Shown: in pieces, positions 2,372 to 22,151 of the stretch | How the letters are laid out: every line of letters starts with the position of its first letter | Position numbering within the stretch: position 1 is the first letter of the stretch | From: a virus | Strand: one strand, 5' to 3' | Virus record (IMG/VR): IMGVR_UViG_3300044695_006747 | Span: 32,001 to 96,000 of that record | DNA: 64,000 nt | Notes under the pieces: model-generated | Databases searched by the model: none | Seen by the model: the letters and a program-made list of their open reading frames with translations, nothing else | What the model was told of the DNA's origin: nothing | Translations under genes and position numbers: made by a program

Positions 2372-2390
2372 CAGTTCAAGGGGTTATATT

Positions 2391-3449: not shown

Positions 3450-3493
3450 TAAGATATACATTAGTTAGCACAAGACAAAACAGGAGGACCAAA

Positions 3494-3643
3494 ATGGACA
3501 ACAATGAATATCTATTTACTATTATTGGTAAATTATATGCAGATATGCATAATGCTCAAAGGATTATAGAAGTTTTACAGACAAAAATTAAAGAAAAGGA
3601 TCAGGAAATTGTTGATCTTAAAAAGGATATAAAGAATTATTAA
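3494..3643 (+). CDS. Small coiled-coil hypothetical protein (49 aa), not in ORF track
   Basis: GGAGGA RBS, ATG at 3494, TAA at 3641-3643; MDNNEYLFTIIGKLYADMHNAQRIIEVLQTKIKEKDQEIVDLKKDIKNY. Confidence 0.7.
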   Translation: MDNNEYLFTIIGKLYADMHNAQRIIEVLQTKIKEKDQEIVDLKKDIKNY

Positions 3644-3649
3644 TGCACA

Positions 3650-4681: not shown

Positions 4682-4687
4682 TTTATA

Positions 4688-5002
4688 ATGAACAATGATA
4701 AAATAAATTATGCTATACAAATAGCAGCCAAAAGACTAGAGACTACTATGATAGGAGCTTTGGCACGATTTGAAACAAGTTTTGGACACCTATGGGGACA
4801 TCATAAGGATTTTGAAGAAAAGCTCACTGAAAAAGAAGAATATTTCGATAATGTTTGGCAAGATTTAAGAAATAATATTCTTAATCATGGCAATAATCAA
4901 ATCCGCGGACTTCACACAGATTTGCAAAAATGTTTAACTGATAAACCAATAACAAAATATGAATATAAATTTAATACGAAAATAAAGGAGGACGATCAAT
5001 GA
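4688..5002 (+). CDS. Hypothetical protein in tail operon
   Basis: 104-aa ORF with ATGA coupling to the next gene. Confidence 0.7.
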   Translation: MNNDKINYAIQIAAKRLETTMIGALARFETSFGHLWGHHKDFEEKLTEKEEYFDNVWQDLRNNILNHGNNQIRGLHTDLQKCLTDKPITKYEYKFNTKIKEDDQ

Positions 5003-5898
5003 ATTCTAAAAACTTTACAGCAACAGTTGATGGTAAGAATATTGAGCTTACAGTAAGAACACCATCGTTACAAGATCAACGAGAGGGTCAAAAAGTTTAT
5101 AATCAGGCTTTCACAGATGCTATTAAAAGCAAGAGCGTAGTACGAGCAAAACTGGACGATCTATTACAAGAACAGGGCTTGTGGAACGACGAGAAACAGG
5201 CTAAGTTCACATCTCTGCAAAAAGAACTCTTAGACGGAGAAAAAAGACTAGCTAAGGGTGGTTTCGGTATTAAAGAGGCTAAATCATTAGCTTTGAAGAT
5301 GAGAAATGTTAGAGATGAAATAAGAGATCTAATTAGTGTTAGAACTAGTTTAGATAATCATAGTGCGGAAGGACAAGCAGATAATGCTAGATTTAATTAT
5401 TTAGTATCAGTCTGTGTGGTGTATAAAGATACTAATGAACCATATTTCAAGAGTTTGGAAGAGTATCTAAATAGCGCTGATAATCCAGTTGCTATGTTAG
5501 GTGCCCAAACACTGGCCACTATGGTTTATGGATTGGATAACAATTTTGAGAAAACATTACCTGAAAATAAGTTTTTACAAAAATATAAGTTTGTTGACGA
5601 AAAACTTAGACTTATAGATAAGCAAGGCAGATTAACAGATGCAGAAGGTCGCTTAATTGATGAAAAAGGCAGATACATTGATGAGCAAGGTAATTATGTT
5701 GACAAGTTTGGCAACAAGGTTGATAAAGATGGCGAGTACCTTATCGACGCCGAGCCATTCTTGGATGAGGATGGAAAGCCAATTATTCTAGAAGAAAATA
5801 AAGCACAAGCTAAGGAAGAGGTAAAACAGAATGAAACGACTGTTACTAAATCAGTGTCAGACACATCTGTTACTTCTAGCACCACAGTTGATTCCTGA
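4999..5898 (+). CDS. Tail assembly chaperone-like protein (G-like)
   Basis: 299-aa helical ORF immediately upstream of the TMP; strong GGAGGA RBS. Confidence 0.6.
   Translation: MNSKNFTATVDGKNIELTVRTPSLQDQREGQKVYNQAFTDAIKSKSVVRAKLDDLLQEQGLWNDEKQAKFTSLQKELLDGEKRLAKGGFGIKEAKSLALKMRNVRDEIRDLISVRTSLDNHSAEGQADNARFNYLVSVCVVYKDTNEPYFKSLEEYLNSADNPVAMLGAQTLATMVYGLDNNFEKTLPENKFLQKYKFVDEKLRLIDKQGRLTDAEGRLIDEKGRYIDEQGNYVDKFGNKVDKDGEYLIDAEPFLDEDGKPIILEENKAQAKEEVKQNETTVTKSVSDTSVTSSTTVDS
5596..5742 (+). repeat. About 7 tandem 7-aa D-x-x-G-x-x-(I/V) repeats in the chaperone C-terminus
   Basis: DEKLRLI DKQGRLT DAEGRLI DEKGRYI DEQGNYV DKFGNKV DKDGEYL. Confidence 0.85.
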
Positions 5899-5981: not shown

Positions 5982-8900
5982 ATGGCTAAAGGTTTTAATC
6001 TAACGGCAGAACTTAATATAAGAGGACCTAATAATCTTAGGACTGTTGTTTCTAATATTAAAAAACAGGTTGGAAGTATTACAGCTAATATTACTCCAAC
6101 TGTTAATAGAAGTAATATCAGAACCATAGCGACAGATATTAGATCTCAATTAGGTAATATCAATGTTGCTGTGGGTGTTACTGCTAATAGATCCTCAATA
6201 CAAAATTTATCTAGGGATATTAGAAATAGACTATCCGGTATAGATGTACCAGTTTCTGTTAGAATCAATAGAGCGTCTATAACAGCAGCTAGAAGAGATA
6301 TAACTAGACAGCTTGGAAGCATAAATGCAAATGTAAACATAGCAATCAGTGCCACAGCAACTAGAAATGCTGCTGGTTTAAATAGAACTTTAACCGGGCT
6401 AAATCAAACACTAAATCAAACAACAACATCTGCCACCAATGCCGCTGCGGCAATACAATCTTTTGCTGCTGCTATGAGAGGAGCTGCTAGTGTTAATATT
6501 CCAAGAAATATTAATATTGGTTTAAATACTGCAAATACAAATGCAACTAATGCCGCTGCTAGTGTGCAACAACTTGGTGGAGAAGTAGAAAATTTCGGTA
6601 GACAAGCTGGATTAGCTATTCGTAGATTCGCTGCATTCACCACTGTTACGTCAGTATTTTATGGGTTAGCTAGAGCAGTACAGTCTGGTATAACTTCTTT
6701 TATAGATTTTGATAGAGAATTAGTAAGAATATCTCAAGTTACTGGAGATAACATTAGAGATGTTAATAAACTAGCATCAACAGTAACACAATTAGCAACC
6801 ACATATGGTGTTTCTTCAAAAGAGCTTGCTGGAGTATCGTTAACATTAGCTCAGGCTGGTTTAACCGCTAAAGAAACCGATAGGGCTTTGAAAGCGTTAG
6901 CTCTTAGCGCATTAGCACCATCGTTCGATGATTTAAATAGTACAGTAGAAGGCTCTATTGCTCTTATGAGACAGTTTGGTATTAGTACAAATCAATTAGA
7001 GGGTGCATTAGGTAGTATCAATTCAGTTGCCGCCAAGTTCGCTGTCGAAGCAAGCGATATTATCGCTGCTATTCAGCGTACCGGTGGTGTGTTTGCTGCT
7101 GCTAGCAAGGGCGTTAGCGAAGGAACAGACGCCTTAAATGAATTCGTTGCAGTATTCACAAGTATCCGTGCTACAACTCGTGAAAGTGCTGAAACAATTG
7201 CTACTGGATTAAGAACAATTTTTACAAGAATTCAAAGAGGGCCAACTATTGAGGCTCTTAAACAATTTGGTGTTAATCTAACGGATGTTGAAGGTAAATT
7301 CGTTGGAGCATATAAAGCGGTTCAATTACTTAGTGAAGGATTAACAAGACTAGATCCTAGAGATTTACGATTTAGTCAAATTGTTGAAGAACTTGGCGGT
7401 TTCCGACAGATTGGCAAAGTTATTCCACTTATTCAAGAATTTGCCACAGCACAGGAAGCACTAAAAGTCGCGCAGACTGGTTCTGGTTCTTTGGCTGAAG
7501 ATGCAGCAAAAGGACAACTAGCGCTTGCTGTACAAATATCAAAAGTACGAGAAGAATTTGCTGCTTTAATTAGAAGTGTTGGAGATACATCATCTTTTAG
7601 AACATTAGTTAAATTAGGATTAGATTTGGCTAGTTCACTAATACAGGTAGCAGATGCGGCAAAAGAATTACTGCCATTAATAGGAATATTTACAGCGATC
7701 AGGGGTGCTCAAGCTCTTACCAGATTTGGAGCCGGATTCGCTCAAGGAGTTAGAGGCGCTCCAACAAGAGGTTTTGCTAGTGGTGGATATGTTCCCGGTG
7801 TTGGTAATAGTGATACCGTGCCCGCTATGCTTACACCAGGAGAATTTGTGATTCGTAAAAAAGCAGTACAAAAAATTGGTGTTGGCAATCTAGCAAAAAT
7901 TAATAGAAATAGTGGTGGATATATTCCGGAACAATATTTCAATGATGGTGGTCAAGTACAAAGATTCGGGATAGGAGGAGGAGCCAAGAAAAAAGGGGTA
8001 AATTGGAAAAGTCTTATTAAAGGTAGGGGTAAAAAGGGATCTCGCGGACCAAGAGGTAGATTTGATTTACCACAACCCGGAGATGCAGATTTTGCTAAAT
8101 GGCAACGCGAAATATATGCAGAATACGATGCAGATCCGTCTCTTACAAGAGTAAAAGTAAATGGTATACCAATGCCACCAGAAATTGCTTATGCTAATCA
8201 ACTTATAACTGAAGAAGTTTTTGGTGATAATGTTAGAAAAAAATCTGGAAAACTTAAAAAAACACCACTGGGTTTACTCATAAGTGCTGCGAAAATGCCA
8301 CGAGGGCCACGAGCACCAGCCGGTGAAATGGAAAAAATTATGGCTGGTTATCAGCAATCTCCTCAATTTCAAAAAGAAGCCGGAGGGGCAGGATCTTCTC
8401 TATTCGCAACATTAAAAGGACCATTAGCATCATTTAAAAAGGGTGGTACTTTTGGTGGAGTTATAACCCCAGGATCAGATAATGCTACACAAATAAAAGC
8501 AGCTTTGGGTAAATTACTAACTCAATCATCTGGTCAGGATGCTGTTAAAGCTAAAACAGCATTAGATAAATTCGATTCTTTCATTGCTGGTGGAACACCA
8601 GAAAAACCCGGACACGTTTCTCATTTTACCTGGGCAATGAATCAGATATTCAAAAAAGGAATAGCAACATTTGGTAGGGGAGGATCAGCATCCAGAAGAA
8701 TGGGCGTATTTGATTTTGATATGACAACAGGAATAACGAAACAAAAAGAAACGCCAAGCTTATCTGGTTTTAGAGATCCTAAATTAGCAGTACCAGATAT
8801 ACTTGGGGCTTCTCCTACGGGATTATTAGAATTAATGAAAAAATACGGAGCCTCTAAAGTATTAACTGCTAGAAGTGGTGGGCCAAGAGGAGAAATGAGA

Positions 8901-11900
8901 ACCGCTCTTGGAACATTCTTTAAAAGAAATGGAGTAATGCTACCGTCTTCAAGTATAATGACCCTGGGAGATCAGGTAGGAAATCTTGGCACAGCAGAGA
9001 AAAAGGCCAGAGCACTATATGATATGGTTAAAAAATATGGTAGTGTTGATTTCTTTGATGACGACGCTGCAAATATTGATGCTGCAAAAATGGTCCGAGG
9101 AGTAACCGCTAAAAAAGTTGCTTTAAAAAATAGTGGTGGATATATTCAAAGACTTATGGCTGGTTCATTTGCTGAAGAACCTAGTATATCTGAAATAGCA
9201 CAAATAGTTACACAGTACGCATATCGAGATCCGTCTATTAATTCTGACCCAGCATTACAACAAGCTGTTCTTGCCACAGTAGCCAAAAGAAATAGAACTT
9301 CTGCAAATTTAGCTACTGCTACCAAATTAGCTGGACTAATATCGACAGGCTCGTTAAATCCAAATTTAGCTAGACAAATTCTATCTTCTAGTAACACAAT
9401 TGTACCCAGTGGCCCTAGAGGCAAACCTACTGTACAAGCTCTTTCTTTGCAAGCACTAAAACCTGGAGAAGAAACTAAATTTACTAGAACCATAGACGGT
9501 GAAGAAATAGATATTGTTAGAGGATCTCCGTCAGCAGCTTTGTCAAAACGCATGACATCAGCAATAGACCGAGGTATTCAAGTAGCAATTAAGGGAACTA
9601 TAGAAGAAGCTTTAAGTGATGTTATTTCTAGAGATCCTAGTAAACGGCAACAATTAATTGATTTAGGAGTTAAGTTTAATAAAAGTGGTAAAGCAATAGC
9701 TCCAAAATCTATGATAGATATGGCTATGAAACATGGCCAAATAAATGAATTAAGAGGTAATATATTTGAAAGAACCTTGATGGGACTCGGAGCAACACCC
9801 GGACCAAAACTTCCTGGTAAAGCAGCTCCAGTTGATGCTTTGAGAATAGGAGATATTGTTGCAGACATCATGTCTCAGGGGCCGTCCAAAATATCTTCTG
9901 ATTTACCATCTGAAATCAAAGCCTCTGTACGCAAAACACGACCAAGTGAAGCAACTCCAGATATAAGTAAACGAGGACTAGTTAATCAGATACTCAGATT
10001 CAAGAGATTGCCTGGAGTACAATTTAAAGCAAAAGGAGGTGGTATTGATGGAATAAGATCAGAGCAAGCTAAATCTGCTATTTTAGGTAAACAACTAAGC
10101 GGCGCGGACATGATAAAAGCTGCTAGACGAGCTGGTTATAATATCGAAGAACTAGATAATGGTTTAGTTCAACTATCTCGTAATAATAAAATTATGCATA
10201 CTCTTAGTAGACCAGAAGCATCAAAACTATTAGGAAGTATATCTACAGGATATAATAAAGGAGGTCCAGCAGGATCAGATACAGTGCCAGCACTATTAAC
10301 TCCTGGCGAATTTGTAATCAATAAGAAAGCTGCTGCTAGACTAGGATCAAGCAGATTACATAGACTGAATAGAGCGGATAAAATTAGCGGTTTTAATACC
10401 GGAGGAGAAGTAGGACGCGTTCCAACATATTCGTCTGGTGGTGATGTGCAAAGATTTTTCTTTGGAGGAGGCGCACGAGCAAGACCAGGGATGCAAGCCA
10501 CAGCAGAGAATCTGATGGTTCCCGGAGGAACAATGAATCAATTAAGAGAAATTATAAATGCTCTTAATGAAATGGGACTTGCGTCGTCACGATCTGCAGA
10601 CCTGTTAAGAAGAAGTGGTAGAGTTAGCGTCCAAGCTGCCAATGATGCTTATGAGGCTGATATTCTAAGATTAAGAGTGGCTGGTGCCCCTATGGACACT
10701 ATATTACAAGCCGAAGCCAGACTTGCTAATATGAGACAACAGGGAGCTCAGCAAGTTAGAGCACAAAGACAATTATCGGGAGTAGGAGGAGCTCAATTAC
10801 AAGTAGTAGAAGACGTTGCTCAGCAAAATATTCAAAGAATGTTTGCAAGAGCTCAAGCTGCTGGTGTTGATCTTAATGAAACTCAAAGAGCGCGAATAGA
10901 AGACATGGGCTACAGAAGAGCTTCTCAGGCTGGTGGTCTTTCAACAGCGCAGACAGCGGGTCTTAGTGGTAATGATTTAAGACAATATATCAATGCTGCT
11001 ATGGGTGATCCTAGAACATTTGAACAAATGAATAGACAGTTTGAGGCTAGAAGACGAGCAGAGCTGAATAATCAATATATTGCCGAAAATAGATTTGGTG
11101 GTGATCGCAGAAGAATATTGCAACAAGCTAGTAGAGATGCTGCTGAAGAAGCTAGAATACGAAGACAAACACTAAATCAAACAAGAGGAGCGGCTGGCCC
11201 AGGAGCGAGCACCGGACAAAGGGTTCAGCAAGGAATGTTTGGTGCTAGTTTTGCTATTCCGATGTTAGCTCAAATGCTTGCGGGAGATCCATCGAGAGCA
11301 GCTACTGCTGGTGGAGCAGCTCAATCTGCTGCTATACAAGGAGCAGGAAATACTGTTGCTATGGGAACAATGATAGCTAGTATGTTTCCTCCTGGCCTTG
11401 GTCAAGGTCTAGCCCTAGCTGCTACAGCGGCAGCTTCTGTTGCTCAGGCATTTATCGATGCTAGAAATGCAACAATAGAATTTGAGAAAAATCTAGCAGC
11501 TAAAAAAGTAGAGATGGCGTTGGAAGATACCGGTAGATTATTTGAAAAATTAGCTAAAGATGTAAAAGATATAGATGTGCAAAATTCGATTGGACAAAAA
11601 CTAATAGAAGCAAGCTCAGCTTCGCAAAGAGCAATTGAGATACAGGCCACCACAGCGAAAGCATTTTGGGTCAATATGTTTGATGCATTTGGAGGGGGTG
11701 ATAGAACACAAAGAGCAGAATCTTCACAAAGAAGTCAAATATTAGATAGGTTTGGAACATCGGCATATTTGGAAACAACAACACTCGGACAGGGATTTCT
11801 AGGAGGACGAGGTACCGCTCAAAATAGAGCTAACGAAGCAAGACTGTCTTACACTTCACAAATGATCCCAGAACAATCTAGAGAAATATCTAAACAGTTT

Positions 11901-14900
11901 GCACCTATAGCAGACAATGCTATTAAACTAATAGAAGAAAAAGTTAGGGGTGGTCTTAAAATAGAAGACTATATTAATACAGATGAATTTAAAAAATTAG
12001 GTAATGCAATTGCTTTAGCTAATACAGCAGTTGCCGAGCAAGTATTGAGAATTAGAAATAGCACAATATTAACAGATAGTCAAAAGGCTGCTCAAGAAAA
12101 ATTAATTATTGCTACTTTTGCTGAAGAAGAAGCGCGAAAAAGAGCAAGTATAGCGGCCAGAGAGATACAGTTAAAAGAAGTTCAAAAGGTTACTACTCAG
12201 TTATCTCGTTCATTAGAAAGAATGTTCCAAAACATGGAACAATCGATAAATAAAACTAATTTTGGTCTAGAAAAAATGAGTAGAGAACTCGATCTTGTAT
12301 CAGCATCATTAACAGGACAAGCAAAAGCTGGAGAAGGAGCATTAAATGCTATAAATATTTTACAAAATCCAAGAGCATACGGCGAAGCAGACTTAACAGC
12401 TGCTCGTGGTCAAGCTGCTGGTTTTTTTGGTGGTAGTGGAGATATTATCAAAGGATTATTAACTCTTGGCGATGATATTGAAGCTACAATAATGGGAACT
12501 ATTAATAAGACTGTAAGAGAATCAGAAGGTGATTCTCCAGCTAAAATTGCTATAGCAATAGAAAAAAGTGTTAAAGATAAACTACAAACATTACAATTGC
12601 CATCTGATGTTTCAGAAAAATTAGCACGAGAAGTTAAAGTAGCATTGAATGAAATTCGTAAAGAGGGAGATGAAAAAGCAGATTTTACTCAAATAGAAGA
12701 AAAACTAAAAGATCTTGGACGCATACTAGAGAGCACAAGAAGAGCGCAAGAAGTTGCACTAAAAGCACTAGAAAACTGGCAAACATCTCTTAATAACTAT
12801 ACATCTTCTATTAATACTCTAGCAGATTTACAAATTGATTTTCAAGCCAGATTAAGAAAAAGTTCCGAATTAATTATTGATAGTCAGCTTAATTTGGCTA
12901 GAACTCTTGGTAAAGATATAAGTTTAGAAAATTTGATAGGAAATAGAAACGCTCTAACTAGACAACAAACTGGTGGATTAACATCACCTCAGGATATATT
13001 TAGAAATATCAACAGACTAGAAGCTCAGAGAAGACAACAGGAGGGAGCTGTTGACGTAGCCAGACAAAGAGGACCAACAGGACTCAAAGATTTCATGGCT
13101 ATGTCAAATAGCTTAAAATTAACAAATGTTGCTTTACGAGAAAATTATGATGCTTTAAGGAACCTGGCTGAAAATAGTGATATAGCAGCAGCTGCTTTGA
13201 ATAAAATTCAAGAAGCTCAACAAAGACAACAGGGTAAAGTAGGTTTTATAGAAAAATTAGTAACATCAACACCGGAAGAATTCGAATCTCTAAACAGAGC
13301 CTTCACCAGACTACAAAACAATGCTAACGGACAAGTTAATACTATAAATAATAGTATTGGAGCACAGAAAGCCTATATAGAAGCTATAAATGGTGGAGCA
13401 ACGGCTTTTGAAGCTATGAGAGCAGCACAAACTGCTTTTGCTAACGAAAGAAGAGACACTCTATCAGCACTAAATGATTTACTTCCATTTTTAGGTAGTG
13501 GTCAACAAGCAAATCAAATTAGAGCTAATACTTTGGAAAGTATGTTAATGGAATCTGGAGTTGGTGTTTCACCAATGTTTGCCGATGTTCTCAATGCTCT
13601 AAGAAATCCAGAAACAGATCCAGAAACTCAAAGAGCTATTGCATTATATCAAGAGGCTAATCAATTGCAGCTTGCTGCTAATGCTTTGTTAAATCAAATA
13701 AACCAGTCATTACAAGCTGAAACAGCAGAAAAATCTGCGAAAGCAATAGCAGACGCTTTGGCAAATACAGTTTTAACTTTTAAGAATGCTGAACAGGCAG
13801 ATCTAAATAGAGGTGTTATTCCACAAAATAGAGCAACAGGCGGAATTATTTATGCTTCTAACGGAGCTTTTGCTCCACGAGGAACAGACACGGTTCCAGC
13901 AATGCTAACGCCAGGAGAATTTGTGGTCAATAAAAGTGCTACTGCCAAAAATCTTCCATTATTAAAGAGTATCAATAGTCAAAAATACAGCAGTGGTGGT
14001 AAAGTTAGATATTATGCTGGCGGAGGATTGGTTAGTAGTTATTTAAATAGAAATTCATGGAATATAGACGGATTCCAAGAATCATCAGACAAATTTTTAG
14101 ATCCTTCAAATCCAGACGTATCTGCGTTGTTGGATTCTGGCAAAATGACTAAGAAATTACAGGTATTGCCAAATGTATGGTATAGAATGCCTTCTTCTAA
14201 TAATTTACAAACCCCAAGAAGTGGATCGGTACTAGATCCTAAGAAAAGAATTCCTACAGAACTAAATATTACTGATCTATATCCATCATCAGGAGATATA
14301 CTTCCTGGTATGGTTAGTCATAGTATTAGTATTTCTGATATTATAGAAGCCAATAGATTATCGGCGTCTCCTGGTAGATTAACTCTATCGACTACTCCTC
14401 CTGGTCTAGATAAAAATATAATATTTGGTATTGATGGGGACAAGTCTATAGATCTTATTACCAAAAATATCAAAAAGTCTGAATTTGAGCAATATAAAAA
14501 AGATATGAATAAAGTCAAAAATAATTTTGAGTCCATTAGCTGGATACAAGATGCCGCTAATCCATTATCTTTATTATTAATGTCAAATTTAGGAGATCAA
14601 GGGTATCCAACTACCATAACACCGCTTGCTAAAGATGCTCGTAATCTTAATCCTAATTCTAGAGAAAGAAATAGAGTTCTTTACTATGGTAATCAATTGG
14701 TTCCAGAAGACAAAGACTATGGTAAACTATGGGAATGGACATCAGGAAGCGTAAGAACTAACGCATTAACTATCGGAGATCCTCCTCATAAACCAAATTT
14801 TGATAATACAGCCGAAGATGCGATAAGACAAATAACAAAAATTAGCGCAATAAGCCCCAAAGGCATTAATAAAAGTAGTCCTGGTATAGTTAAACCAAAA

Positions 14901-17900
14901 GAAATAAAAGATATTGTTCAATATCATAAAAAACAATTTGATGTAATTAAAAAATCTGTTATATTAGCTGATAATAATTTTAAAGATATAAAATTTATTG
15001 ATACTCCAGAAGTTAGAAAATATCAAGAATTACAAACTCAATTTACCAATTTATATAATAATCTTTCTCCTTATGAAGTTTTCGAAGATCTTAGCTTATT
15101 CGATCATCCATTTTTAAAAAATGCTAAGAGTTTAATAGTAACTTCTAACGCAGCTCCCACAAGAGATGATATTAAAAAATATATTGAAAATAAACAGGCA
15201 AATCTTGAACCAGGAAGTACGCAGCCAAATAATAATGGAAATCCTATTTTAGTTGGATTATTGGATGCTTTAGATGGCAATTTAAATAATTTAACACAAG
15301 AGTGGGTTAAAAAAAGAGAGTTTGATATATTCCCTCAAGGCCCAGGAGGAGTTAAACAATTTCCATATTTAGTCAATGCAAACATTGGCGATCTAGGCAA
15401 AGGATTTACAGAAAGAGCCAAGCAAGCAGCCCTAGATCAACAGGATAGAATATCTCAAGAATTGGTATTTGATAATCGTAAGATGAGGTTAACTCTTGGG
15501 GCTGGTAAAAATATCGACCTACCATATTCTGCTACATATACAAAATATAGTGGTCCATTATGGGATAATACAACTAAATCATTTAGTGAAGATGCAAACA
15601 AACAATTAAAGGATCTTTATTTACCAGAAGATGCGAATATATTTAAGGGTCTCGATATTTCTAGTCAAAGATTATTTAGTAGCAAACAACCATTCGATTT
15701 AAACGCAGCAGGCTATTCGATTCCGGACAATTCTGCCAATAAGCTAATTGAACTTATTACCAATAATGGTGATCAAAATCAAATAGATCAAGCTAAAAAT
15801 GATATTATCAAAAATAGCACATTAACATTTCCTCATAAAGGACCAAATGCTTCGGGATCATTAGTTAAGTTACAAAATGCTGTTGGTCAACAAATTTTTA
15901 GTGCTTATTCTCAATTACCATCAACAACATTTAATTTTGGTGAATTTTTAGCTCAAGCTATAACAGATTATGCTGTTAATAATAAGAAAGAAGCTGGAAT
16001 TGCTGCTGGTAAAATTGCTGACCAAAAGATGGGCAAAGAAATAATTGGCGATGCTCCAATGGAAACTGTTAGGGTCTTGCAAACATTAACTCAAGGAGCT
16101 TTAAGTGTATTTGGTAGACGTCCAGTACCAGGATTACCAAGAGGTTGGCTATTTAATAATATTCGTTCATTAGGAGGCATTTTACCACGAGGAGGAAGAA
16201 CTTCTGTTGGTAAGTTAACTAATAATGAACAAGCAAAGTCTGCTGCCGGAATTATTCGTAATGTTATTAATAATGCTGGAGCATATGTTAGTAATCTATC
16301 CGGAAGAGTTAATAACCCTCAATTATATAATGGACTTAAAGATGTTTATGGATTAATGTGGGGAGCATACAAAGCTTTTGATTCCATCAATAAGTCTGAT
16401 ACTAGAAATTTAGCTCAATTACTTAAGATTGATCAAGTTAATGCTGGTAATGGAGGATCGGTAGTTGATATAGAGTCCATATTTAGAATGCTCGGAGGAT
16501 CAGCAGCATTTGAAAAAGCTGCCGCAGCACCGTTATCAGAAGACTACAAAACAATGCTTGGTAATCAACTAGTTGGATCAAAAATTACAACTGTTGATGC
16601 GGCTGGTAATATTAAATTGGTTAACCCCGTAGATGCTCCTCCTCCAAAGATTGATAATTATAGCGATTTAATGAATTTAGCATTAAATCCATATAATGAA
16701 TTCTCTTCCAGAACTGTGAGAAGTTCAATATTCGATAAATTAATAGGAGATATTAGTACTGCTGTTGATAATCGAGGAATGCCATACTTTGATCCTAATA
16801 CTTCTAATTTCTTAATAGGATCGTTAGATACGCTTAAAAAATGGTACGGCGGAGATGGTGCTTGGTTAGGACAAGACTATTTATTTGATAAGGCCGCAAA
16901 CGCTGACCCTGTGGCCAGAGGACAACAGTTCACAGCAAATCTGGATGCTGGACGAGGCTTATATGAAATGTCTAATATGGCGCATCAAAATCTTGGGGGC
17001 TCAGTTAAGTTTGGAGATTTACCAAATGATCTATGGTTCCAAAATAGAATAGCAGCAGGAAATTTTGCTACTGGTGGTTTAGTTTATGCTTCTAATGGTA
17101 CTTTGGTGAACTTCCAACCACGAGGCACAGACACCGTTCCCGCTATGTTAACTCCGGGAGAGTTTGTAGTTAATCGCGCTGCTACTCAGAAAAATTTACC
17201 ATTGTTAAAGAGTATTAATAGTAATACTTATATGGCCGACGGAGGATTATTAGAAACTCCAAAAACTGTTCAGGGTGTTACCATTCCAGGTAGAGATAAC
17301 CTGAGTCCACGCATTAATAGAATAGATAAGAATATAGCATATAACACAAGTGGTATTAGTACTATACAAAAAGATATATCAGTTATTAAAGATAGTATTG
17401 ATAAGTTATTGTCTGATCAAACGATGTTGTCTCAAAGTTTAGACACTGTGAATAAATTAAAAAACGATATTATGATGATAGCTGATATGGTTATGAAATC
17501 TCCGGCAGCTATTTATGATCAGATGCTAGTAGCATTACGACAATTATGGACAGAGGTAGGCAACGGACTAACGGCAACACTACAAGGACTTATGAATGCT
17601 CCATGGCCAGCAGTACCCTTTAATAGGGGTGGGCCAGTATATGCTAGTCAAGGAAAATTAATAGATTTTCAACCACGAGGCACAGATACTGTTCCCGCAA
17701 TGTTAACTCCTGGAGAATTCGTGGTTAACGCTAAAGCAACCAAGAATAATTTAGGATTATTACAAAGTATAAATCAGGGAGTTGGTGGATACAGTAGAGG
17801 TGGAGTTGTTTATTTAGAAGATGGTGGATTAACTCCCGGAGCAAAACAAACATTAACAGATTTACAAAATCAAGGATATAATTTACAAGATATTGTGTCT

Positions 17901-20900
17901 GGCAAAACAAGAGTTCCTGGCGTTGTAATAGAGGCATCAAAGATACCAGATGATCCTATGATGCCAACAAAACCAGCCCCAAACATAGAAACATATAGAG
18001 AAAATCCAAGACTATGGAATGGCTTCAAAGATGCTAGTGGTTTTTGGTGGAATAAAAGAGGAGAATCGGTTATAAGCGCATACGGAGCGCCTCCAGCGTT
18101 ACCTAATTTTCAAGAAAGAATGCAAGCATTTGAGTCTATTGTCAGCGCTTTTGCCGGTGCGGGCGGAGTAGGAGGAGGTCGTGGAAAACTAGCAGATGTT
18201 CGCGGTCTGCCTGCGGGAATGCCAATGCAGAGAAATGCTCCAGGTCCACTAGGAACTGGTGTGGCTATTCCGTATAGTATTGGTAGGCCAAATCCTAATA
18301 ATGTGCCAAAAGCGAACTCAGGTGGTCTCACATTAGATGCAATTAGAGATCCATTAACTGGTAACTACTATGTATCAGACACTCCTGCGAGAAATATTAT
18401 TCTTTCTGGACGTCAAGGATTACCAGCTCCAAAAAGTAGACAAAGAGCAAGGTCACCTCTAGATTTAGAAAATGGTAAAATACCAGATTCTATTACCAAT
18501 CCCAAAGCCAAAGAATTTATGCATCTTGCGATAAAAGAAATGATTGGATATACTGAATTCATGAATCTAGTTAAACTGAAAGTGCAAGGATCAGATAGGA
18601 CATATTCTAGTTTATTAAAATTTTTAGCCTTAGATGTATTTCCAAAAGGAAATGCTTACGGAGTTGATTCTCTAGACAAAGCTATTTCATTTTTTAATAC
18701 TCCAGAAGGTATAGAATTATACAATAAAAAAATATCTTCAAAAATAGGTGCGGTTCCAGAAATAGGTGGATATAATGCATCTATAATCAATCAAAATTCT
18801 AAAACCGGTGGTGGTGGTATTACAGAAAGACTATTAAAAGAATTATTTCAACAAAATATATTTCATATTAGTAAAAGATCAGCCAATGTTCCAAACGATC
18901 TTAATTCCAGAATGGTCTCACTGATCCCATCTACAACCGGATTACTATATGATGATAATATAGCAAAACTATTATCTTCTGCTGGCGTTACGCCAAGAGT
19001 CGATTCTAATAGGGTTAGTTATGTATTCGATGTAGACGAGGCAGGCAAGGATTGGGGGCTGCTCAATCCGGATCAAAGAACCTATCTGCAACAATTTGCT
19101 CCAAAAGCAACAGGCAGTGAATCATCCAATATGAAAAGAGGACAGCTAAGAACCTCTCCAAGAGAGAGATTATCTCAGTCGAATACTCCACCCAAGCTTT
19201 CTGATTTTGCTCCTAACGTCACACCCGTTTCGAAAAAAGCATTTCACGGATCAGGATCAGAAATTATGCAAATTGATCCTAATAAATTAGCACAGGGTAT
19301 GTTGGGAGAGGCATTCTATGTTGGCTTTAATCCGAATGAAGCTCCTATTACTTATTTGAAAATGCGACTAGATAGCTGGTTACTTGCGAATAATCTAAAA
19401 AGTGGCAATGTTACACCAGAACAGATAGCCGAGTTTAAAGGAGGAATATACCCTGTTGAAATTATGGGTGGAATAGATGACTTTTTAGCTGCTGATCAAG
19501 TACTAAAAGATAATCCAGCAGCATTATCTAAAATAGAAGCAATATATCGTGATCTTGAGTTAAGAAAAGTTAAACTAGGTCCAATACAATATACCAACGA
19601 TCCCACAACAGGAAAGCCCAAAGTATCAAGAACAGAAAGTCCTCTAGATCTAGCATCCTCAACAGTTATGGATGCATATGATAATATTCAAAATCAATTA
19701 GCAGCTAAATACGAAGCTGAATTTGCTGGTAAGTCTAATATTCCTGATGCAAGATTTGAAGCTCTTACAAGATCCGCCACAGATATGAGGAAAATGTTTG
19801 TGAAGTACGGTATACCAGGATTTACAGATCTAAATAATGCTAGAGGTCAAGGATCTATGGCAGGAATATTTGATATTGATAGAATATCTGTTGGAGATGT
19901 ATATATTCCAGACGAAGTCTTAAGAAAGGTCTTAGGCACAGACGATATTACAGAAGCTAAGCGACAAATAGAATTTATTAAAACCGGCAAATACCCCGAT
20001 CAAGACGCATTCAAAGGTCTTGAAGCAATGGGCGAGCTTCTATCAAAACAACAGCCAGCATATAAGAGCAGAGGTGGAGCAATATATGCTAGTAAAGGCC
20101 AACTAATTAACTTTGAGCCTCGTGGCACAGATACAGTTCCAGCAATGCTCACCCCCGGTGAATTTGTTATTAATCGACAAGCAACACAAAAACATCTTCC
20201 ATTATTACAAGCTATTAACAATGGAGCGCAAGGTTATTCTGATGGTGGTGTGGTTTATTTACAACCAGGTGGTCGTGTACCAGTAAATCCGGCCATGCCG
20301 AGAGGTCCACGAACCAAAGAAGAAAAAGAAGCTTATAAACGAGGAGGTCTAAGAGATAAATTACAAGCTCAATCAAAAAACAGATTTGATACTCAAGCAC
20401 TAGCAGCACAAAAAAATCAAAATGGTAGATTATGGATATTTACTCTTCCACGAGAAGATTTATTGAAAGATGGTGATGGTAATCCATTAAATAATGGTAT
20501 TCAATATTTGCTTAAAGATGCAAACGGAAAACCTTCTGATAATTTATCAACAGAATCTTTAGCTGCTATGGATATTAGTAAAATATTTTCATTAAGAAAT
20601 AATAATGCCAGAGATGCTAAAAAAGACTTGATCAACATGCAGCCCCTCAATATTTTTAAATTAGCAAAGGCAATACCACAAGATGCTGTTAGTGCAATAT
20701 CCAAAGCACGACAACAACAGGCTAGAAAAAGTTTTGATCAAAAAATACTAGATGAGTTATCATATCAGATTCAAACAAAACAAGATATGTTTAGTATTTT
20801 TAATCCCAACTTTTTTAATACCGATGGTGCTATTGTTGATAAATATAATCAAGAAATGTCCGAAATTATAGATCGTATGGATTTGAATAATCCAGCCTCT

Positions 20901-22151
20901 GTAATGGCTGGACTAGCCGCTCTTGGTCCCAAAGTTAAGAAAGTTAAAACTAGAAAAGATTATTTAGAAGAAATTATTAGAAATAATCAGCAGGCAATAG
21001 CAGTACTTAGAGCGGCAAATCTTGATTTTACTAAGTCTGAAAATATGAGAGAAAGCTTTAAAGGTAATCTCCCAACATTTATTCATCAAAAACAAATTGA
21101 TGATGGTACTATTGAGAGGAATAGTGCGGATAAAATTTTGCAAAACTTAATGAATAATCCAAAGATTCAGATGGCATTGCAGAACCCAATAGTAGCACGA
21201 TCCGTACAAGCGGCTTTGATGCAACAACAAGGATTCGGAGTACCAATATCAACATTCGAGGGTGGTCCCGGAGCTGTTAATATTCCTCAAAGATTAGCTC
21301 GTGGTGGAGTTGTTTATGCAAACGATGGAGCATTAGTGGGTTTTCAATCACGAGGAACCGACACAATTCCAGCGATGCTAACTCCTGGAGAGTTTGTGGT
21401 TAACAGAAGATCAGCTCAAAATAATTTACCATTGTTACAAGCTATAAATAGTGGCTTATATAATAAGGGTGGAAAAGTGTCGTATTTGGCTCGCGGCGGA
21501 GCTATTGCAGAAAGACAAGCAAATGCAACATTAAATTATGAAAAACAGATGCTTGAGAGAAGAAAAGCATACGAAGAAAATATGTTAAGAAAAAGACAAG
21601 CAGCAGAAAACGAGATGGAAAGAAGAAGAAATGCGTATGCTTCAGGAACTCCAATTCAGCAAATTACACAACAATTCAATCGGAATAGTGGCCAACCTAT
21701 TAGTTCCAATCAACTGGCTTTCTTGAGTGGAGGAACACCAGGAACAGAAGAACTTAGAAGAGCCTTATCCAATATTAATCAGGTTATGCTACAAGGATCT
21801 CAGTCTCTAAGCACAACACTCACCGCATTATCAAATACCATTAATAATTTTAATACAAATTTTGCTAATATAAATGAAATTAATAAACCGGCCTCAAATA
21901 GTGGTGTATCTAATACTAGTAATCCTGCGGCTACGTTGGATGCTCTTGGAAATAGGCTCAATCAATTTATTGAACAGCTACAAAACGCATTGCCACCAGT
22001 AATTAAAGTTGAAGGACAACACCAGGTTAATGTGGTCATTAATGGAGCTAGTATACTACAACAACTACTATCTGGTCCAATAGGAAATATAGTACAAAGT
22101 GCAATACAATCAGCATTTGACAAACAAAGCAGAAAGAGAGAGGGCTACTGA
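5982..22151 (+). CDS. Giant tape measure protein (5389 aa) with internal repeats and enzyme-like cargo domains
   Basis: Follows the tail chaperones. TP901/TIGR01760-like core at ~aa 205-590 (FIDFDRELVRISQV; ALALSALAPSFDDL; SINSVAAKFAV; ESAETIATGLRTIFTRI), long Ala/Gln-rich helical regions, and seven DTVPAMLTPGEFV modules. Confidence 0.92.
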   Translation: MAKGFNLTAELNIRGPNNLRTVVSNIKKQVGSITANITPTVNRSNIRTIATDIRSQLGNINVAVGVTANRSSIQNLSRDIRNRLSGIDVPVSVRINRASITAARRDITRQLGSINANVNIAISATATRNAAGLNRTLTGLNQTLNQTTTSATNAAAAIQSFAAAMRGAASVNIPRNINIGLNTANTNATNAAASVQQLGGEVENFGRQAGLAIRRFAAFTTVTSVFYGLARAVQSGITSFIDFDRELVRISQVTGDNIRDVNKLASTVTQLATTYGVSSKELAGVSLTLAQAGLTAKETDRALKALALSALAPSFDDLNSTVEGSIALMRQFGISTNQLEGALGSINSVAAKFAVEASDIIAAIQRTGGVFAAASKGVSEGTDALNEFVAVFTSIRATTRESAETIATGLRTIFTRIQRGPTIEALKQFGVNLTDVEGKFVGAYKAVQLLSEGLTRLDPRDLRFSQIVEELGGFRQIGKVIPLIQEFATAQEALKVAQTGSGSLAEDAAKGQLALAVQISKVREEFAALIRSVGDTSSFRTLVKLGLDLASSLIQVADAAKELLPLIGIFTAIRGAQALTRFGAGFAQGVRGAPTRGFASGGYVPGVGNSDTVPAMLTPGEFVIRKKAVQKIGVGNLAKINRNSGGYIPEQYFNDGGQVQRFGIGGGAKKKGVNWKSLIKGRGKKGSRGPRGRFDLPQPGDADFAKWQREIYAEYDADPSLTRVKVNGIPMPPEIAYANQLITEEVFGDNVRKKSGKLKKTPLGLLISAAKMPRGPRAPAGEMEKIMAGYQQSPQFQKEAGGAGSSLFATLKGPLASFKKGGTFGGVITPGSDNATQIKAALGKLLTQSSGQDAVKAKTALDKFDSFIAGGTPEKPGHVSHFTWAMNQIFKKGIATFGRGGSASRRMGVFDFDMTTGITKQKETPSLSGFRDPKLAVPDILGASPTGLLELMKKYGASKVLTARSGGPRGEMRTALGTFFKRNGVMLPSSSIMTLGDQVGNLGTAEKKARALYDMVKKYGSVDFFDDDAANIDAAKMVRGVTAKKVALKNSGGYIQRLMAGSFAEEPSISEIAQIVTQYAYRDPSINSDPALQQAVLATVAKRNRTSANLATATKLAGLISTGSLNPNLARQILSSSNTIVPSGPRGKPTVQALSLQALKPGEETKFTRTIDGEEIDIVRGSPSAALSKRMTSAIDRGIQVAIKGTIEEALSDVISRDPSKRQQLIDLGVKFNKSGKAIAPKSMIDMAMKHGQINELRGNIFERTLMGLGATPGPKLPGKAAPVDALRIGDIVADIMSQGPSKISSDLPSEIKASVRKTRPSEATPDISKRGLVNQILRFKRLPGVQFKAKGGGIDGIRSEQAKSAILGKQLSGADMIKAARRAGYNIEELDNGLVQLSRNNKIMHTLSRPEASKLLGSISTGYNKGGPAGSDTVPALLTPGEFVINKKAAARLGSSRLHRLNRADKISGFNTGGEVGRVPTYSSGGDVQRFFFGGGARARPGMQATAENLMVPGGTMNQLREIINALNEMGLASSRSADLLRRSGRVSVQAANDAYEADILRLRVAGAPMDTILQAEARLANMRQQGAQQVRAQRQLSGVGGAQLQVVEDVAQQNIQRMFARAQAAGVDLNETQRARIEDMGYRRASQAGGLSTAQTAGLSGNDLRQYINAAMGDPRTFEQMNRQFEARRRAELNNQYIAENRFGGDRRRILQQASRDAAEEARIRRQTLNQTRGAAGPGASTGQRVQQGMFGASFAIPMLAQMLAGDPSRAATAGGAAQSAAIQGAGNTVAMGTMIASMFPPGLGQGLALAATAAASVAQAFIDARNATIEFEKNLAAKKVEMALEDTGRLFEKLAKDVKDIDVQNSIGQKLIEASSASQRAIEIQATTAKAFWVNMFDAFGGGDRTQRAESSQRSQILDRFGTSAYLETTTLGQGFLGGRGTAQNRANEARLSYTSQMIPEQSREISKQFAPIADNAIKLIEEKVRGGLKIEDYINTDEFKKLGNAIALANTAVAEQVLRIRNSTILTDSQKAAQEKLIIATFAEEEARKRASIAAREIQLKEVQKVTTQLSRSLERMFQNMEQSINKTNFGLEKMSRELDLVSASLTGQAKAGEGALNAINILQNPRAYGEADLTAARGQAAGFFGGSGDIIKGLLTLGDDIEATIMGTINKTVRESEGDSPAKIAIAIEKSVKDKLQTLQLPSDVSEKLAREVKVALNEIRKEGDEKADFTQIEEKLKDLGRILESTRRAQEVALKALENWQTSLNNYTSSINTLADLQIDFQARLRKSSELIIDSQLNLARTLGKDISLENLIGNRNALTRQQTGGLTSPQDIFRNINRLEAQRRQQEGAVDVARQRGPTGLKDFMAMSNSLKLTNVALRENYDALRNLAENSDIAAAALNKIQEAQQRQQGKVGFIEKLVTSTPEEFESLNRAFTRLQNNANGQVNTINNSIGAQKAYIEAINGGATAFEAMRAAQTAFANERRDTLSALNDLLPFLGSGQQANQIRANTLESMLMESGVGVSPMFADVLNALRNPETDPETQRAIALYQEANQLQLAANALLNQINQSLQAETAEKSAKAIADALANTVLTFKNAEQADLNRGVIPQNRATGGIIYASNGAFAPRGTDTVPAMLTPGEFVVNKSATAKNLPLLKSINSQKYSSGGKVRYYAGGGLVSSYLNRNSWNIDGFQESSDKFLDPSNPDVSALLDSGKMTKKLQVLPNVWYRMPSSNNLQTPRSGSVLDPKKRIPTELNITDLYPSSGDILPGMVSHSISISDIIEANRLSASPGRLTLSTTPPGLDKNIIFGIDGDKSIDLITKNIKKSEFEQYKKDMNKVKNNFESISWIQDAANPLSLLLMSNLGDQGYPTTITPLAKDARNLNPNSRERNRVLYYGNQLVPEDKDYGKLWEWTSGSVRTNALTIGDPPHKPNFDNTAEDAIRQITKISAISPKGINKSSPGIVKPKEIKDIVQYHKKQFDVIKKSVILADNNFKDIKFIDTPEVRKYQELQTQFTNLYNNLSPYEVFEDLSLFDHPFLKNAKSLIVTSNAAPTRDDIKKYIENKQANLEPGSTQPNNNGNPILVGLLDALDGNLNNLTQEWVKKREFDIFPQGPGGVKQFPYLVNANIGDLGKGFTERAKQAALDQQDRISQELVFDNRKMRLTLGAGKNIDLPYSATYTKYSGPLWDNTTKSFSEDANKQLKDLYLPEDANIFKGLDISSQRLFSSKQPFDLNAAGYSIPDNSANKLIELITNNGDQNQIDQAKNDIIKNSTLTFPHKGPNASGSLVKLQNAVGQQIFSAYSQLPSTTFNFGEFLAQAITDYAVNNKKEAGIAAGKIADQKMGKEIIGDAPMETVRVLQTLTQGALSVFGRRPVPGLPRGWLFNNIRSLGGILPRGGRTSVGKLTNNEQAKSAAGIIRNVINNAGAYVSNLSGRVNNPQLYNGLKDVYGLMWGAYKAFDSINKSDTRNLAQLLKIDQVNAGNGGSVVDIESIFRMLGGSAAFEKAAAAPLSEDYKTMLGNQLVGSKITTVDAAGNIKLVNPVDAPPPKIDNYSDLMNLALNPYNEFSSRTVRSSIFDKLIGDISTAVDNRGMPYFDPNTSNFLIGSLDTLKKWYGGDGAWLGQDYLFDKAANADPVARGQQFTANLDAGRGLYEMSNMAHQNLGGSVKFGDLPNDLWFQNRIAAGNFATGGLVYASNGTLVNFQPRGTDTVPAMLTPGEFVVNRAATQKNLPLLKSINSNTYMADGGLLETPKTVQGVTIPGRDNLSPRINRIDKNIAYNTSGISTIQKDISVIKDSIDKLLSDQTMLSQSLDTVNKLKNDIMMIADMVMKSPAAIYDQMLVALRQLWTEVGNGLTATLQGLMNAPWPAVPFNRGGPVYASQGKLIDFQPRGTDTVPAMLTPGEFVVNAKATKNNLGLLQSINQGVGGYSRGGVVYLEDGGLTPGAKQTLTDLQNQGYNLQDIVSGKTRVPGVVIEASKIPDDPMMPTKPAPNIETYRENPRLWNGFKDASGFWWNKRGESVISAYGAPPALPNFQERMQAFESIVSAFAGAGGVGGGRGKLADVRGLPAGMPMQRNAPGPLGTGVAIPYSIGRPNPNNVPKANSGGLTLDAIRDPLTGNYYVSDTPARNIILSGRQGLPAPKSRQRARSPLDLENGKIPDSITNPKAKEFMHLAIKEMIGYTEFMNLVKLKVQGSDRTYSSLLKFLALDVFPKGNAYGVDSLDKAISFFNTPEGIELYNKKISSKIGAVPEIGGYNASIINQNSKTGGGGITERLLKELFQQNIFHISKRSANVPNDLNSRMVSLIPSTTGLLYDDNIAKLLSSAGVTPRVDSNRVSYVFDVDEAGKDWGLLNPDQRTYLQQFAPKATGSESSNMKRGQLRTSPRERLSQSNTPPKLSDFAPNVTPVSKKAFHGSGSEIMQIDPNKLAQGMLGEAFYVGFNPNEAPITYLKMRLDSWLLANNLKSGNVTPEQIAEFKGGIYPVEIMGGIDDFLAADQVLKDNPAALSKIEAIYRDLELRKVKLGPIQYTNDPTTGKPKVSRTESPLDLASSTVMDAYDNIQNQLAAKYEAEFAGKSNIPDARFEALTRSATDMRKMFVKYGIPGFTDLNNARGQGSMAGIFDIDRISVGDVYIPDEVLRKVLGTDDITEAKRQIEFIKTGKYPDQDAFKGLEAMGELLSKQQPAYKSRGGAIYASKGQLINFEPRGTDTVPAMLTPGEFVINRQATQKHLPLLQAINNGAQGYSDGGVVYLQPGGRVPVNPAMPRGPRTKEEKEAYKRGGLRDKLQAQSKNRFDTQALAAQKNQNGRLWIFTLPREDLLKDGDGNPLNNGIQYLLKDANGKPSDNLSTESLAAMDISKIFSLRNNNARDAKKDLINMQPLNIFKLAKAIPQDAVSAISKARQQQARKSFDQKILDELSYQIQTKQDMFSIFNPNFFNTDGAIVDKYNQEMSEIIDRMDLNNPASVMAGLAALGPKVKKVKTRKDYLEEIIRNNQQAIAVLRAANLDFTKSENMRESFKGNLPTFIHQKQIDDGTIERNSADKILQNLMNNPKIQMALQNPIVARSVQAALMQQQGFGVPISTFEGGPGAVNIPQRLARGGVVYANDGALVGFQSRGTDTIPAMLTPGEFVVNRRSAQNNLPLLQAINSGLYNKGGKVSYLARGGAIAERQANATLNYEKQMLERRKAYEENMLRKRQAAENEMERRRNAYASGTPIQQITQQFNRNSGQPISSNQLAFLSGGTPGTEELRRALSNINQVMLQGSQSLSTTLTALSNTINNFNTNFANINEINKPASNSGVSNTSNPAATLDALGNRLNQFIEQLQNALPPVIKVEGQHQVNVVINGASILQQLLSGPIGNIVQSAIQSAFDKQSRKREGY
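6030..6355 (+). repeat. About 4 imperfect ~27-aa repeats at the TMP N-terminus
   Basis: Recurring NR(S/A)(N/S)I....DI...L(G/S).I...V pattern (NRSNIRTIATDIRSQLGNINV / NRSSIQNLSRDIRNRLSGIDV / NRASITAARRDITRQLGSINA). Confidence 0.7.
7812..7850 (+). repeat. TMP module copy 1 (DTVPAMLTPGEFV)
   Basis: Begins at aa 611; preceded by FASGG. Confidence 0.95.
8700..9120 (+). other. HAD-superfamily phosphatase-like domain inside TMP
   Basis: Motif I VFDFDMT, motif II LTARS, motif III Lys (EKKA), motif IV FFDDDAAN, in canonical order and spacing. Confidence 0.75.
9740..10030 (+). other. PD-(D/E)XK (REase-fold) nuclease-like domain inside TMP
   Basis: GNIFE helix, then PVD, then EIK, in the expected order. 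Confidence 0.5.
10278..10316 (+). repeat. TMP module copy 2 (DTVPALLTPGEFV)
   Basis: Begins at aa 1433; preceded by YNKGG. Confidence 0.95.
13887..13925 (+). repeat. TMP module copy 3 (DTVPAMLTPGEFV)
   Basis: Begins at aa 2636; context ATGGIIYASNG..PRGT...NLPLLKSINS. Confidence 0.95.
17130..17168 (+). repeat. TMP module copy 4 (DTVPAMLTPGEFV)
   Basis: Begins at aa 3717; context ATGGLVYASNG..QPRGT...NLPLLKSINS. Confidence 0.95.
17685..17723 (+). repeat. TMP module copy 5 (DTVPAMLTPGEFV)
   Basis: Begins at aa 3902; context NRGGPVYASQG..QPRGT...NLGLLQSINQ. Confidence 0.95.
19233..19890 (+). other. ADP-ribosyltransferase-fold (ART-PolyVal-like) domain inside TMP
   Basis: AFHGS...GMLGEAFYV...GGIYPVEI...YGIPGF...AGIFD matches the H-G-(S/T), G-x-G-x-x-F-Y, G-Y-D-G-I, V-V-F-D pattern; terminal catalytic Glu not evident. 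Confidence 0.6.
20130..20168 (+). repeat. TMP module copy 6 (DTVPAMLTPGEFV)
   Basis: Begins at aa 4717; context SRGGAIYASKG..EPRGT...HLPLLQAINN. Confidence 0.95.
21360..21398 (+). repeat. TMP module copy 7 (DTIPAMLTPGEFV)
   Basis: Begins at aa 5127; context ARGGVVYANDG..QSRGT...NLPLLQAINS. Confidence 0.95.

Follow-up and report, generated by a model that had tools for sequence, protein, structure and literature searches.

Tape measure proteins (TMPs) of phages are usually seen as helical rulers that also aid the crossing of the envelope by DNA. Here we describe a giant TMP whose gene occupies positions 5982-22151 on the + strand of a 64,000-nucleotide stretch of viral DNA, termed the window below, which corresponds to bases 32001-96000 of the 186,823-bp genome IMGVR_UViG_3300044695_006747 (a single contig). 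It is characterized by a Gly-rich module that recurs seven times along the chain and marks the junctions between a conserved backbone and blocks that are exchanged among related phages. Several described systems share a part of these features.

The first of these is gpH, the TMP of lambda, from the Gly-rich region of which a C-terminal fragment of ~14 kDa (gpHC) is cut after tail assembly; the remaining gpH* spans approximately residues 1-710, the site is roughly mapped (PMC12617516). Residues ~690-817 of gpH are unresolved, and only 818-849 have been modelled (PMC12617516, PMC10721106). In both gpH and the TMP described here, the last module lies ~100-200 residues from the C-terminus and a short tail comes after it; in lambda this tail plugs into the tip together with gpI. 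They differ in that gpH has one module in 853 residues, against seven in 5,389 here, in that gpH contains no embedded enzyme domain (PMC12617516), and in that cleavage is shown for lambda only. The second system is gp16 of the mycobacteriophage Douge (1,699 aa; PDB 8ZDO), likewise a multi-module TMP and one from a cultured, structurally studied phage. It has two modules, however; residues 1658-1699 alone are resolved, and no cassette exchange has been described for it.

A further set of TMPs, those of TM4, SPbeta (YomI) and the T5 pb2 type, contains peptidoglycan-hydrolase inserts. The mt3 enzyme segment within the TM4 TMP, gp17, acts at infection (Piuri and Hatfull 2006, PMC1796659), and removal of the 114-aa enzyme motif from this TMP yields a tail ~20 nm shorter (PMC1796659). 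Such TMPs resemble the present one in having an enzyme-type segment inside the TMP, but carry one peptidoglycan hydrolase each, whereas here the segment is HAD phosphatase-like and modules set off the many inserts from one another.

Giant TMPs are also known from cultured siphophages: gp95 of the Thermus phage P74-26 has 5,006 residues with a tail of nearly 1 µm, and the Nodularia phage vB_NpeS-2AV2 combines a 3,404-aa TMP with a 795-nm tail (0.23 nm per residue). Unlike the TMP described here, that of P74-26 yielded no module when searched for it, and that of 2AV2 has the identical core in two strong, adjacent modules rather than a seven-fold array with variable blocks. As P74-26 has none, the modules cannot be a general need of long TMPs. 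Finally, polyvalent proteins are single long chains whose several exchangeable domains reach the target cell together with the DNA or before it (PMC5512222), and the Sle1-type effectors of contractile injection systems (CIS) combine a TMP-related platform with swappable functional domains (PMC13277306). One polypeptide with several exchangeable domains is common to these and to the present TMP, which differs from the polyvalent proteins in that their defining domains are not detected in it by Pfam and in that it possesses a bona fide TMP domain and probably lies in a tail gene block. Our survey of the literature found no published description of this giant-TMP family or of the repeated module.

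A module repeated seven times in a giant tape measure protein

The gene is a single open reading frame (ORF) of 5,389 codons plus stop that runs from ATG to stop without internal stops. Its product matches PF10145 (PhageMin_Tail) at aa 268-468 (E 1.2e-22; 81.2 bits against a cut-off of 33.2) and TIGR01760 (tape_meas_TP901) at aa 227-572 (E 3.7e-22; 78.8 bits against a cut-off of 28.8), and its first 600 residues also match several PHROG TMP families. Because both models score above their cut-offs and the PHROG TMP families concur, we identify the product by sequence comparison as a genuine TMP of the TP901 family, as a previous sequence-only reading of this DNA had proposed.

The module is a Gly-rich segment of 70-110 residues built around the core DTVPAMLTPGEFV. 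The core D-T-(V/I)-P-A-(M/L)-L-T-P-G-E-F-V starts at aa 611, 1433, 2636, 3717, 3902, 4717 and 5127, precisely where the sequence-only reading had placed seven modules. A profile made from the seven copies recovers exactly these seven (i-E 1e-21 to 1e-39) in the six-frame translation of the whole genome and nothing further at E < 0.4; the seven-fold repeat is therefore not due to chance. The same result led us to reject the idea that the module tags other virion proteins, no copy being present outside the TMP in this genome. In a fragment-wise self-BLAST, which also set the approximate extents of the modules, they are almost the sole internal repeat of the TMP: one further self-match joins aa 532-684 with 3805-3977 (31% over 182 aa), pairing the end of the TMP domain with block D, and no further blocks match each other at E<=1e-3.

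The modules fall into three subtypes. The 'first' type follows the TMP domain and is represented by module 1 (aa 597-684; here and below the window coordinates follow in the same bracket and all features are on the + strand: 7770-8033), which is the most lambda-like. The second precedes block B (module 2: aa 1418-1501, 10233-10484). The 'later' type, with a GG-x-x-Y-A-x-x-G lead-in before the core, includes module 3 (aa 2613-2692, 13818-14057) and is the multiplied subtype, accounting for 387 of 550 copies across the family. Further along the chain are module 4 (aa 3694-3767, 17061-17282), module 5 (aa 3870-3977, 17589-17912), module 6 (aa 4686-4799, 20037-20378) and module 7 (aa 5101-5211, 21282-21614); like modules 2 and 3, modules 4, 6 and 7 were delineated by core search, self-BLAST and profile. 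The copies had been described as near-identical proteins; this holds for the core of ~20 residues and not for the module as a whole, since pairwise identity over 58 aligned residues is 24-67%. At positions with identical amino acids the codons agree in only 31-58% of cases between copies, which bears out the synonymous divergence noted previously. Because codons differ where amino acids agree, comparison of the copies indicates that they are old and that selection on the peptide maintains them; a recent duplication or gene conversion of the modules was rejected, the synonymous sites being saturated.

Searches with the module among sequences that have solved structures point to a common origin with segments of lambda gpH and Douge gp16. 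With module 1 as query, matches were obtained to gpH 732-784 (E 3.4e-4), to gp16 963-1036 and 1408-1457, and to a TMP-like chain of 8RK3 (8rk3_A 1017-1066), the last in this search only. A profile of 85 modules recovers gp16 at 959-1036 and 1409-1465 (E 1.9e-14) and gpH at 728-794 (E 1.7e-3). The matched stretch has no modelled coordinates in any of the three structures. On this basis the TMP module is homologous to gpH 728-794 and to the two copies in gp16. As the gpH match adjoins the rough cleavage position, the lambda module lies at the start of gpHC, beside the cut. The repeated module also offers a handle on an old question, the cleavage of the lambda TMP near the motif. No Pfam or NCBIfam model covers the module; it maps onto the C-terminal parts of phrog_25241, 17300, 35723 and 13338, and PDB sequence searches with both halves of the TMP returned relatives for the modules only.

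A conserved backbone with interleaved exchangeable blocks

A length-matched search gave 188 relatives, of which the best 120 were analysed (2,979-7,872 aa; contigs of up to 235 kb). Each of these has 3-10 modules, the first at a median of aa 516 and the last ending a median of 136 residues before the C-terminus. The 121 proteins (this TMP and the 120 relatives) were cut at their modules and the resulting 790 segments clustered, giving 162 clusters, 106 of them singletons. The N-terminal segment, comprising repeats and TMP domain, occurs in 120 of the 121 proteins, and the TP901-type TMP domain itself (aa 206-596, 6597-7769) matches all 120 relatives at 65-98% identity. Block B (aa 1502-2612, 10485-13817) is present in 120/120 relatives and block C (aa 2693-3693, 14058-17060) in 76/121 proteins, and the C-terminal tail G (aa 5212-5389, 21615-22148) in 93/121, always after the last module. 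By contrast with this backbone, the A, D, E and F blocks of the TMP are each found in just 4-5 proteins; block D, a short variable linker (aa 3768-3869, 17283-17588), occurs in only 5 relatives, as does the variable block F (aa 4800-5100, 20379-21281). The plan of the family, as judged from these clusters, is thus a conserved backbone of N-terminal repeats and TMP domain, the ~1,100-aa block B, often block C, and tail G, interleaved with exchangeable blocks, and every junction is marked by one copy of the module. Given their presence in 120/120 and 76/121, we classify blocks B and C as conserved backbone rather than cargo, and to that extent the earlier picture of modules that bracket cargo blocks is not supported.

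The N-terminal region (aa 1-205, 5982-6596) shows in translation ~30-aa repeats rich in Asn, Ile and Arg and is covered to >30% in 80 of the 120 relatives. About four such repeats of ~30 residues lie at aa ~30-140 (6070-6400), of the type 'N-R-S-x-I-x-x-I-x-x-D-I-R-x-x-L-G-x-I-N'. With 54% helix-forming residues and 1.9% Pro, block B is by composition probably helical and would be the main ruler segment, whereas Pro reaches 5.7-8% and aromatics ~8% in blocks C, E1 and A1. The division into helical and non-helical stretches proposed from the sequence thus agrees with the Pro-poor composition of block B, the Pro content of C, E1 and A1, and the mixed alpha/beta model of block C described below. 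By analogy of position, tail G would be the equivalent of the tip-plugging C-termini of lambda gpH (818-849) and Douge gp16 (1658-1699).

The closest relative (P0002, 90% identity) is 92-100% identical over most of the chain, with two drops, to 28-62% in aa 1051-1350 and 18-36% in aa 3951-4400, the latter set against about 98% elsewhere; a more distant relative, P0004, is 90-96% identical at aa 3901-4400. In codon-level comparison with the gene for P0004 (L002), nucleotide identity rises from 57-67% to 84-94% at ~aa 3900, inside module 5, which thus holds the left edge of a recent exchange tract; the right edge is at ~aa 4390, inside block E. The part so delimited, block E1 (aa 3978-4400, 17913-19181), has a dS of 0.50, while A1 has 0.81 and the remaining parts 1.0-2.6; on these identities and dS it was recently exchanged with a distant relative. 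Block E2 (aa 4401-4685, 19182-20036) is variable as judged by its identity to relatives. Other identity transitions are at the end of module 1, just before module 2, at the end of module 3, and at ~aa 900 and ~aa 1050. The last two divide block A: A1 (aa 685-900, 8034-8681) is a variable sub-cassette deleted in P0003 and unrelated in P0005 and P0006; A2 (aa 901-1050, 8682-9131) is the HAD-type domain considered below; and A3 (aa 1051-1417, 9132-10232), for which no family or PDB match was found, is variable, with 28-76% identity to the closest relatives between flanks of 84-100%. The parts also assort independently: P0123 and P0124 have the HAD segment but lack A1, and six other TMPs have A1 without the HAD segment. 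Whole units are affected too, as P0005 has an extra block-plus-module unit 5' of the module orthologous to module 6, and module 6 together with block F is orthologous to the seventh module of P0005. Blocks are thus exchanged among relatives, and in these comparisons the modules are frequent, non-exclusive borders: the earlier suggestion of swapping at module boundaries stands for the exchange itself and for the several edges that lie in modules, but not for the breaks at ~aa 900, 1050 and 4390.

The inserted blocks are, in the comparison with L002, under purifying selection like that on the TMP domain. The ratio of nonsynonymous to synonymous rates (dN/dS) is 0.08-0.10 in A1 (0.08), the HAD segment (0.084), E1 and E2, 0.07 in the TMP domain and 0.06-0.10 in the modules; these values are rough, dS being saturated in most blocks.

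A HAD-type domain among the inserted blocks

In a language-model atlas, block A is placed beside clusters of small viral HAD, DUF2608 and acid-phosphatase proteins (score 0.82-0.84), all of them members of the HAD clan, which served as a lead only. An exhaustive HMMER search recovered stand-alone relatives of aa 901-1050, of 140-540 residues, and a Pfam scan of ten of these gave three matches above cut-off, two to DUF2608 and one to PF00702. For aa 901-1050 itself there is no direct Pfam match at E<=0.1, and the link to curated families is transitive, via the stand-alone homologues. The HAD motifs I (DxDxT), II (S/T), III (K) and IV (DD) are present in this order, and in the alignment with the stand-alone relatives D25, T76, K122, D140 and D141 are invariant, with D27 in at least 90% of sequences. 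A cap insert of ~45 residues is missing from the embedded copies. By these motifs and homologues, aa 901-1050 is a cap-less HAD-type phosphatase-like domain with all four motifs intact.

The remaining inserts gave less. A word search for stand-alone homologues of block A returned a single sequence, of 870 aa and with identity across 25% of the block, which is probably a fragment of this same TMP, and a comparable search with E1 found no stand-alone homologue of 232-741 aa. An AlphaFold2 model of block C (mean pLDDT 75.6, pTM 0.45) has beta-rich domains in residues 1-630 and a helical part in 630-1001, and block C is accordingly predicted to be a mixed alpha/beta multi-domain fold. Foldseek searches of PDB and BFVD with this model gave nothing at E<=1e-3, and comparison with PDB representatives (VIA-align) gave just generic helical bundles for model residues 664-799 (Z<=8.8). 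A model of block E, module 6 and block F, made from an 11-row alignment, has a mean pLDDT of 41.8 and is unreliable. Searches of Pfam, NCBIfam, PHROGs and PDB sequences found no peptidoglycan-hydrolase domain (lysozyme, transglycosylase, M23 or Rpf-type) in the TMP, and Pfam gave no match at E<=0.1 to polyvalent-protein domains (ART-PolyVal, DarB-type helicase or methylase, Zn-peptidases and others); in one weak atlas neighbour cluster (score 0.81), 12% of the members carry ART-PolyVal. Of the several enzymes proposed earlier, only one HAD-type domain could thus be assigned; blocks C, E and F have no assignable function.

From one module to ten

The module pattern is found in at least 595 stretches in IMG/VR. 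Among 80 IMG/VR loci with TMP ORFs of 430-4,700 aa, there is one module in 27 ORFs, two in 23, three in 16, four in 11 and five or six in 3. In bacterial genomes, mostly of Nostocales and Planctomycetota, 69 of 77 TMP ORFs have a single module, located 100-300 residues from the C-terminus; with the lambda gpH match, this accords with the statement in the sequence-only reading that a similar motif usually occurs once near the C-terminus of TMPs. Taken together, IMG/VR and bacterial genomes show a graded series that begins with short one-module TMPs and reaches TMPs of 3,000-4,700 aa with 4-6 modules. TMPs with a single module have 430-1,700 aa, and at the other extreme one 7,794-aa TMP has 10 modules, so the idea of an expandable array is upheld; among the 120 relatives, TMP length and module count are correlated (Spearman 0.60). 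On these counts the seven-module array is the long end of a continuum. Of about 560 copies in the family, 424 have the 13-aa core without any deviation. A first scan of bacterial genome contigs with the TMP domain as query gave no match.

The short pattern P-A-(M/L)-L-(T/S)-P-G-E-F was also seen, mostly in single copy, in TMP-like ORFs of many genomes of Nostocales (Nostoc, Scytonema, Calothrix), Planctomycetota (Pirellulales, Gemmata, Thermoguttaceae), Verrucomicrobiales, SAR202 and Bacteroidia; these taxa hint at the host range of the module-bearing phages. EF-hand families (PF13405, PF13202, PF00036) appear in the Pfam listings for P0002 and a few other giant TMPs, and are absent from the TMP of the window in the Pfam search.

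Functional interpretation

Our preferred reading, to which we give a probability of about 0.5, is that the whole chain works as a ruler, in a tail that would be ~0.8-1.2 µm long, and that, like other TMPs, it leaves the tail for the host before the DNA does, so that the inserted blocks, including the HAD-type phosphatase domain, would be delivered as cargo. During tail assembly or maturation one conserved partner would recognise the module as a joint; the joint would hold the chain and, by analogy with lambda, is probably where it is cut. A motif that is letter-perfect in several hundred copies points to such a specific partner. Inserts can be ruler and cargo at once, since deletion of the TM4 enzyme motif shortens the tail and P74-26 and 2AV2 provide precedents for giant TMPs with long tails. 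The same precedents conflict with the earlier view that a tail of ~800 nm is implausible and much of the chain probably not measuring tape: 3,404 residues go with 795 nm in 2AV2 and 5,006 with ~1 µm in P74-26. The family demonstrates that a ruler can grow to 3,000-7,900 residues by the addition of block-plus-module units, and the added blocks are constrained, exchangeable and at least sometimes enzyme-like. The family would predict tails of at least 1 µm in uncultured aquatic phages. If delivery or cutting does take place, the tail lumen would be a second protein-carrying compartment besides the head, with contents that can be re-assorted between phages.

Several points weigh against this reading. 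Tail length, cleavage and delivery are inferred for a phage known from sequence alone, and cutting at the modules draws on one imprecise analogy, the lambda site being roughly mapped. One inserted block alone has been given an enzyme-like identity. Exchange edges also fall inside blocks (~aa 900, 1050 and 4390). The monomer model yields no structure for the module, the pLDDT of module 6 being 36-48. Moreover, block C is predicted to be globular, and three or six folded copies would be hard to fit into a tail-tube lumen of ~4 nm; consequently, either stored block C must differ from the model or its relation to the ruler must be non-standard.

The alternative that survives best, which we regard as somewhat unlikely, is that the TMP is purely a ruler: the modules would be structural staples that set oligomer register or contact the tube wall or a chaperone, and the blocks length spacers subject to drift and recombination, with neither cleavage nor any action in the host. 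It would explain why longer TMPs have more modules, a trend seen in hundreds of TMPs, and why a backbone module spacing of ~1,000-1,250 aa recurs in many relatives. It is also in line with the 0.8-1 µm tails of the cultured phages with giant TMPs, with the contribution of the TM4 insert to tail length (PMC1796659) and with the lack of a recognisable enzyme family in most blocks. Drifting spacers are difficult to reconcile, however, with variable blocks as constrained as the TMP domain (dN/dS 0.08-0.10) or with HAD catalytic motifs that are intact in both embedded and stand-alone copies; block C, moreover, is predicted to be folded rather than coiled coil, and P74-26 builds its tail of ~1 µm with no such staples.

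A stronger role for the module, which we hold to be less probable again, is that of a processing element, the TMP being cut at or beside every copy by a tail protease or by the module itself, an extension by analogy of the lambda gpH to gpH* cleavage, for which it would account. Were this so, the tail lumen would store seven or eight separate proteins, namely a ruler or channel piece, the phosphatase and several unassigned folded proteins, which would pass into the host one after another, in a set order and before the DNA. Such a system would amount to a tail-borne delivery of effectors that can be exchanged as cassettes.

It is quite improbable that the modules are recombination anchors only, persisting for the swapping of cassettes in co-infection while the peptide has no role. 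The mosaic identity along the chain, with transitions at the end of module 1, the start of module 2, the end of module 3 and inside module 5, and the gain or loss of whole block-plus-module units by relatives are what such anchors would produce. Yet anchoring would act on the DNA, and codon identity between copies of this gene is 0.31-0.58, with dS of 1.0-2.6 between orthologous modules, in the face of a core that is exact in most copies of the family; the motif is also kept in single copy in lambda and many short TMPs, as well as in Douge, without cassettes, and many exchange edges lie away from modules. It is this selection on the peptide, together with the retention of the motif in single-copy TMPs, that makes an anchoring role alone unlikely. 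Lastly, that an assembly error, or a chimera joining several genes, produced the giant ORF is hardly conceivable: apart from its unusual length and uneven G+C (0.32-0.41) nothing speaks for it, whereas collinear proteins of 5,336, 5,166 and 5,179 aa, each with seven modules in corresponding places, are encoded in independent assemblies (ENA, Logan and JGI), the ORF is free of internal stops, and purifying selection extends along the full length.

Genomic setting

The source, on its sequence, is an uncultured siphophage of ~187 kb with a very divergent and large tail module of siphophage type. A near-identity DNA search with the TMP gene across the phage collection gave no match. A strongly hydrophobic transmembrane segment in the TMP was considered and rejected, as no 19-aa stretch reaches a Kyte-Doolittle mean of 1.4. 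G+C is 0.36-0.41 across most of the TMP gene and 0.28-0.34 in the rest of the window, with a dip to 0.32 at 14001-16000, the N-terminal part of block C; this unevenness probably reflects Ala/Gly-rich as against Asn/Asp-rich protein composition.

Upstream of the TMP gene are seven ORFs (247-5898, +), none with a PHROG match; five of the seven were run against Pfam and none scored above a curated cut-off. By position, these should include the tube protein, for which 3650-4681 is the candidate, and the tail chaperones. Two of them, 4688-5002 and 4999-5898, overlap by 4 nt. Downstream lie large ORFs of 945, 483, 698, 1,837 and 3,031 aa. The 483-aa product (25002-26453, +) carries a Peptidase_S74 intramolecular chaperone domain at its C-terminus (E 1e-6), matches tail-fibre PHROGs and is probably a self-cleaving fibre or spike protein. 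The 1,837-aa ORF (28595-34108, +), for which a Pfam search gave no match, and the 3,031-aa ORF (34111-43206, +) are two more giant ORFs of the tail region; with the TMP gene they occupy ~31 kb of the tail module.

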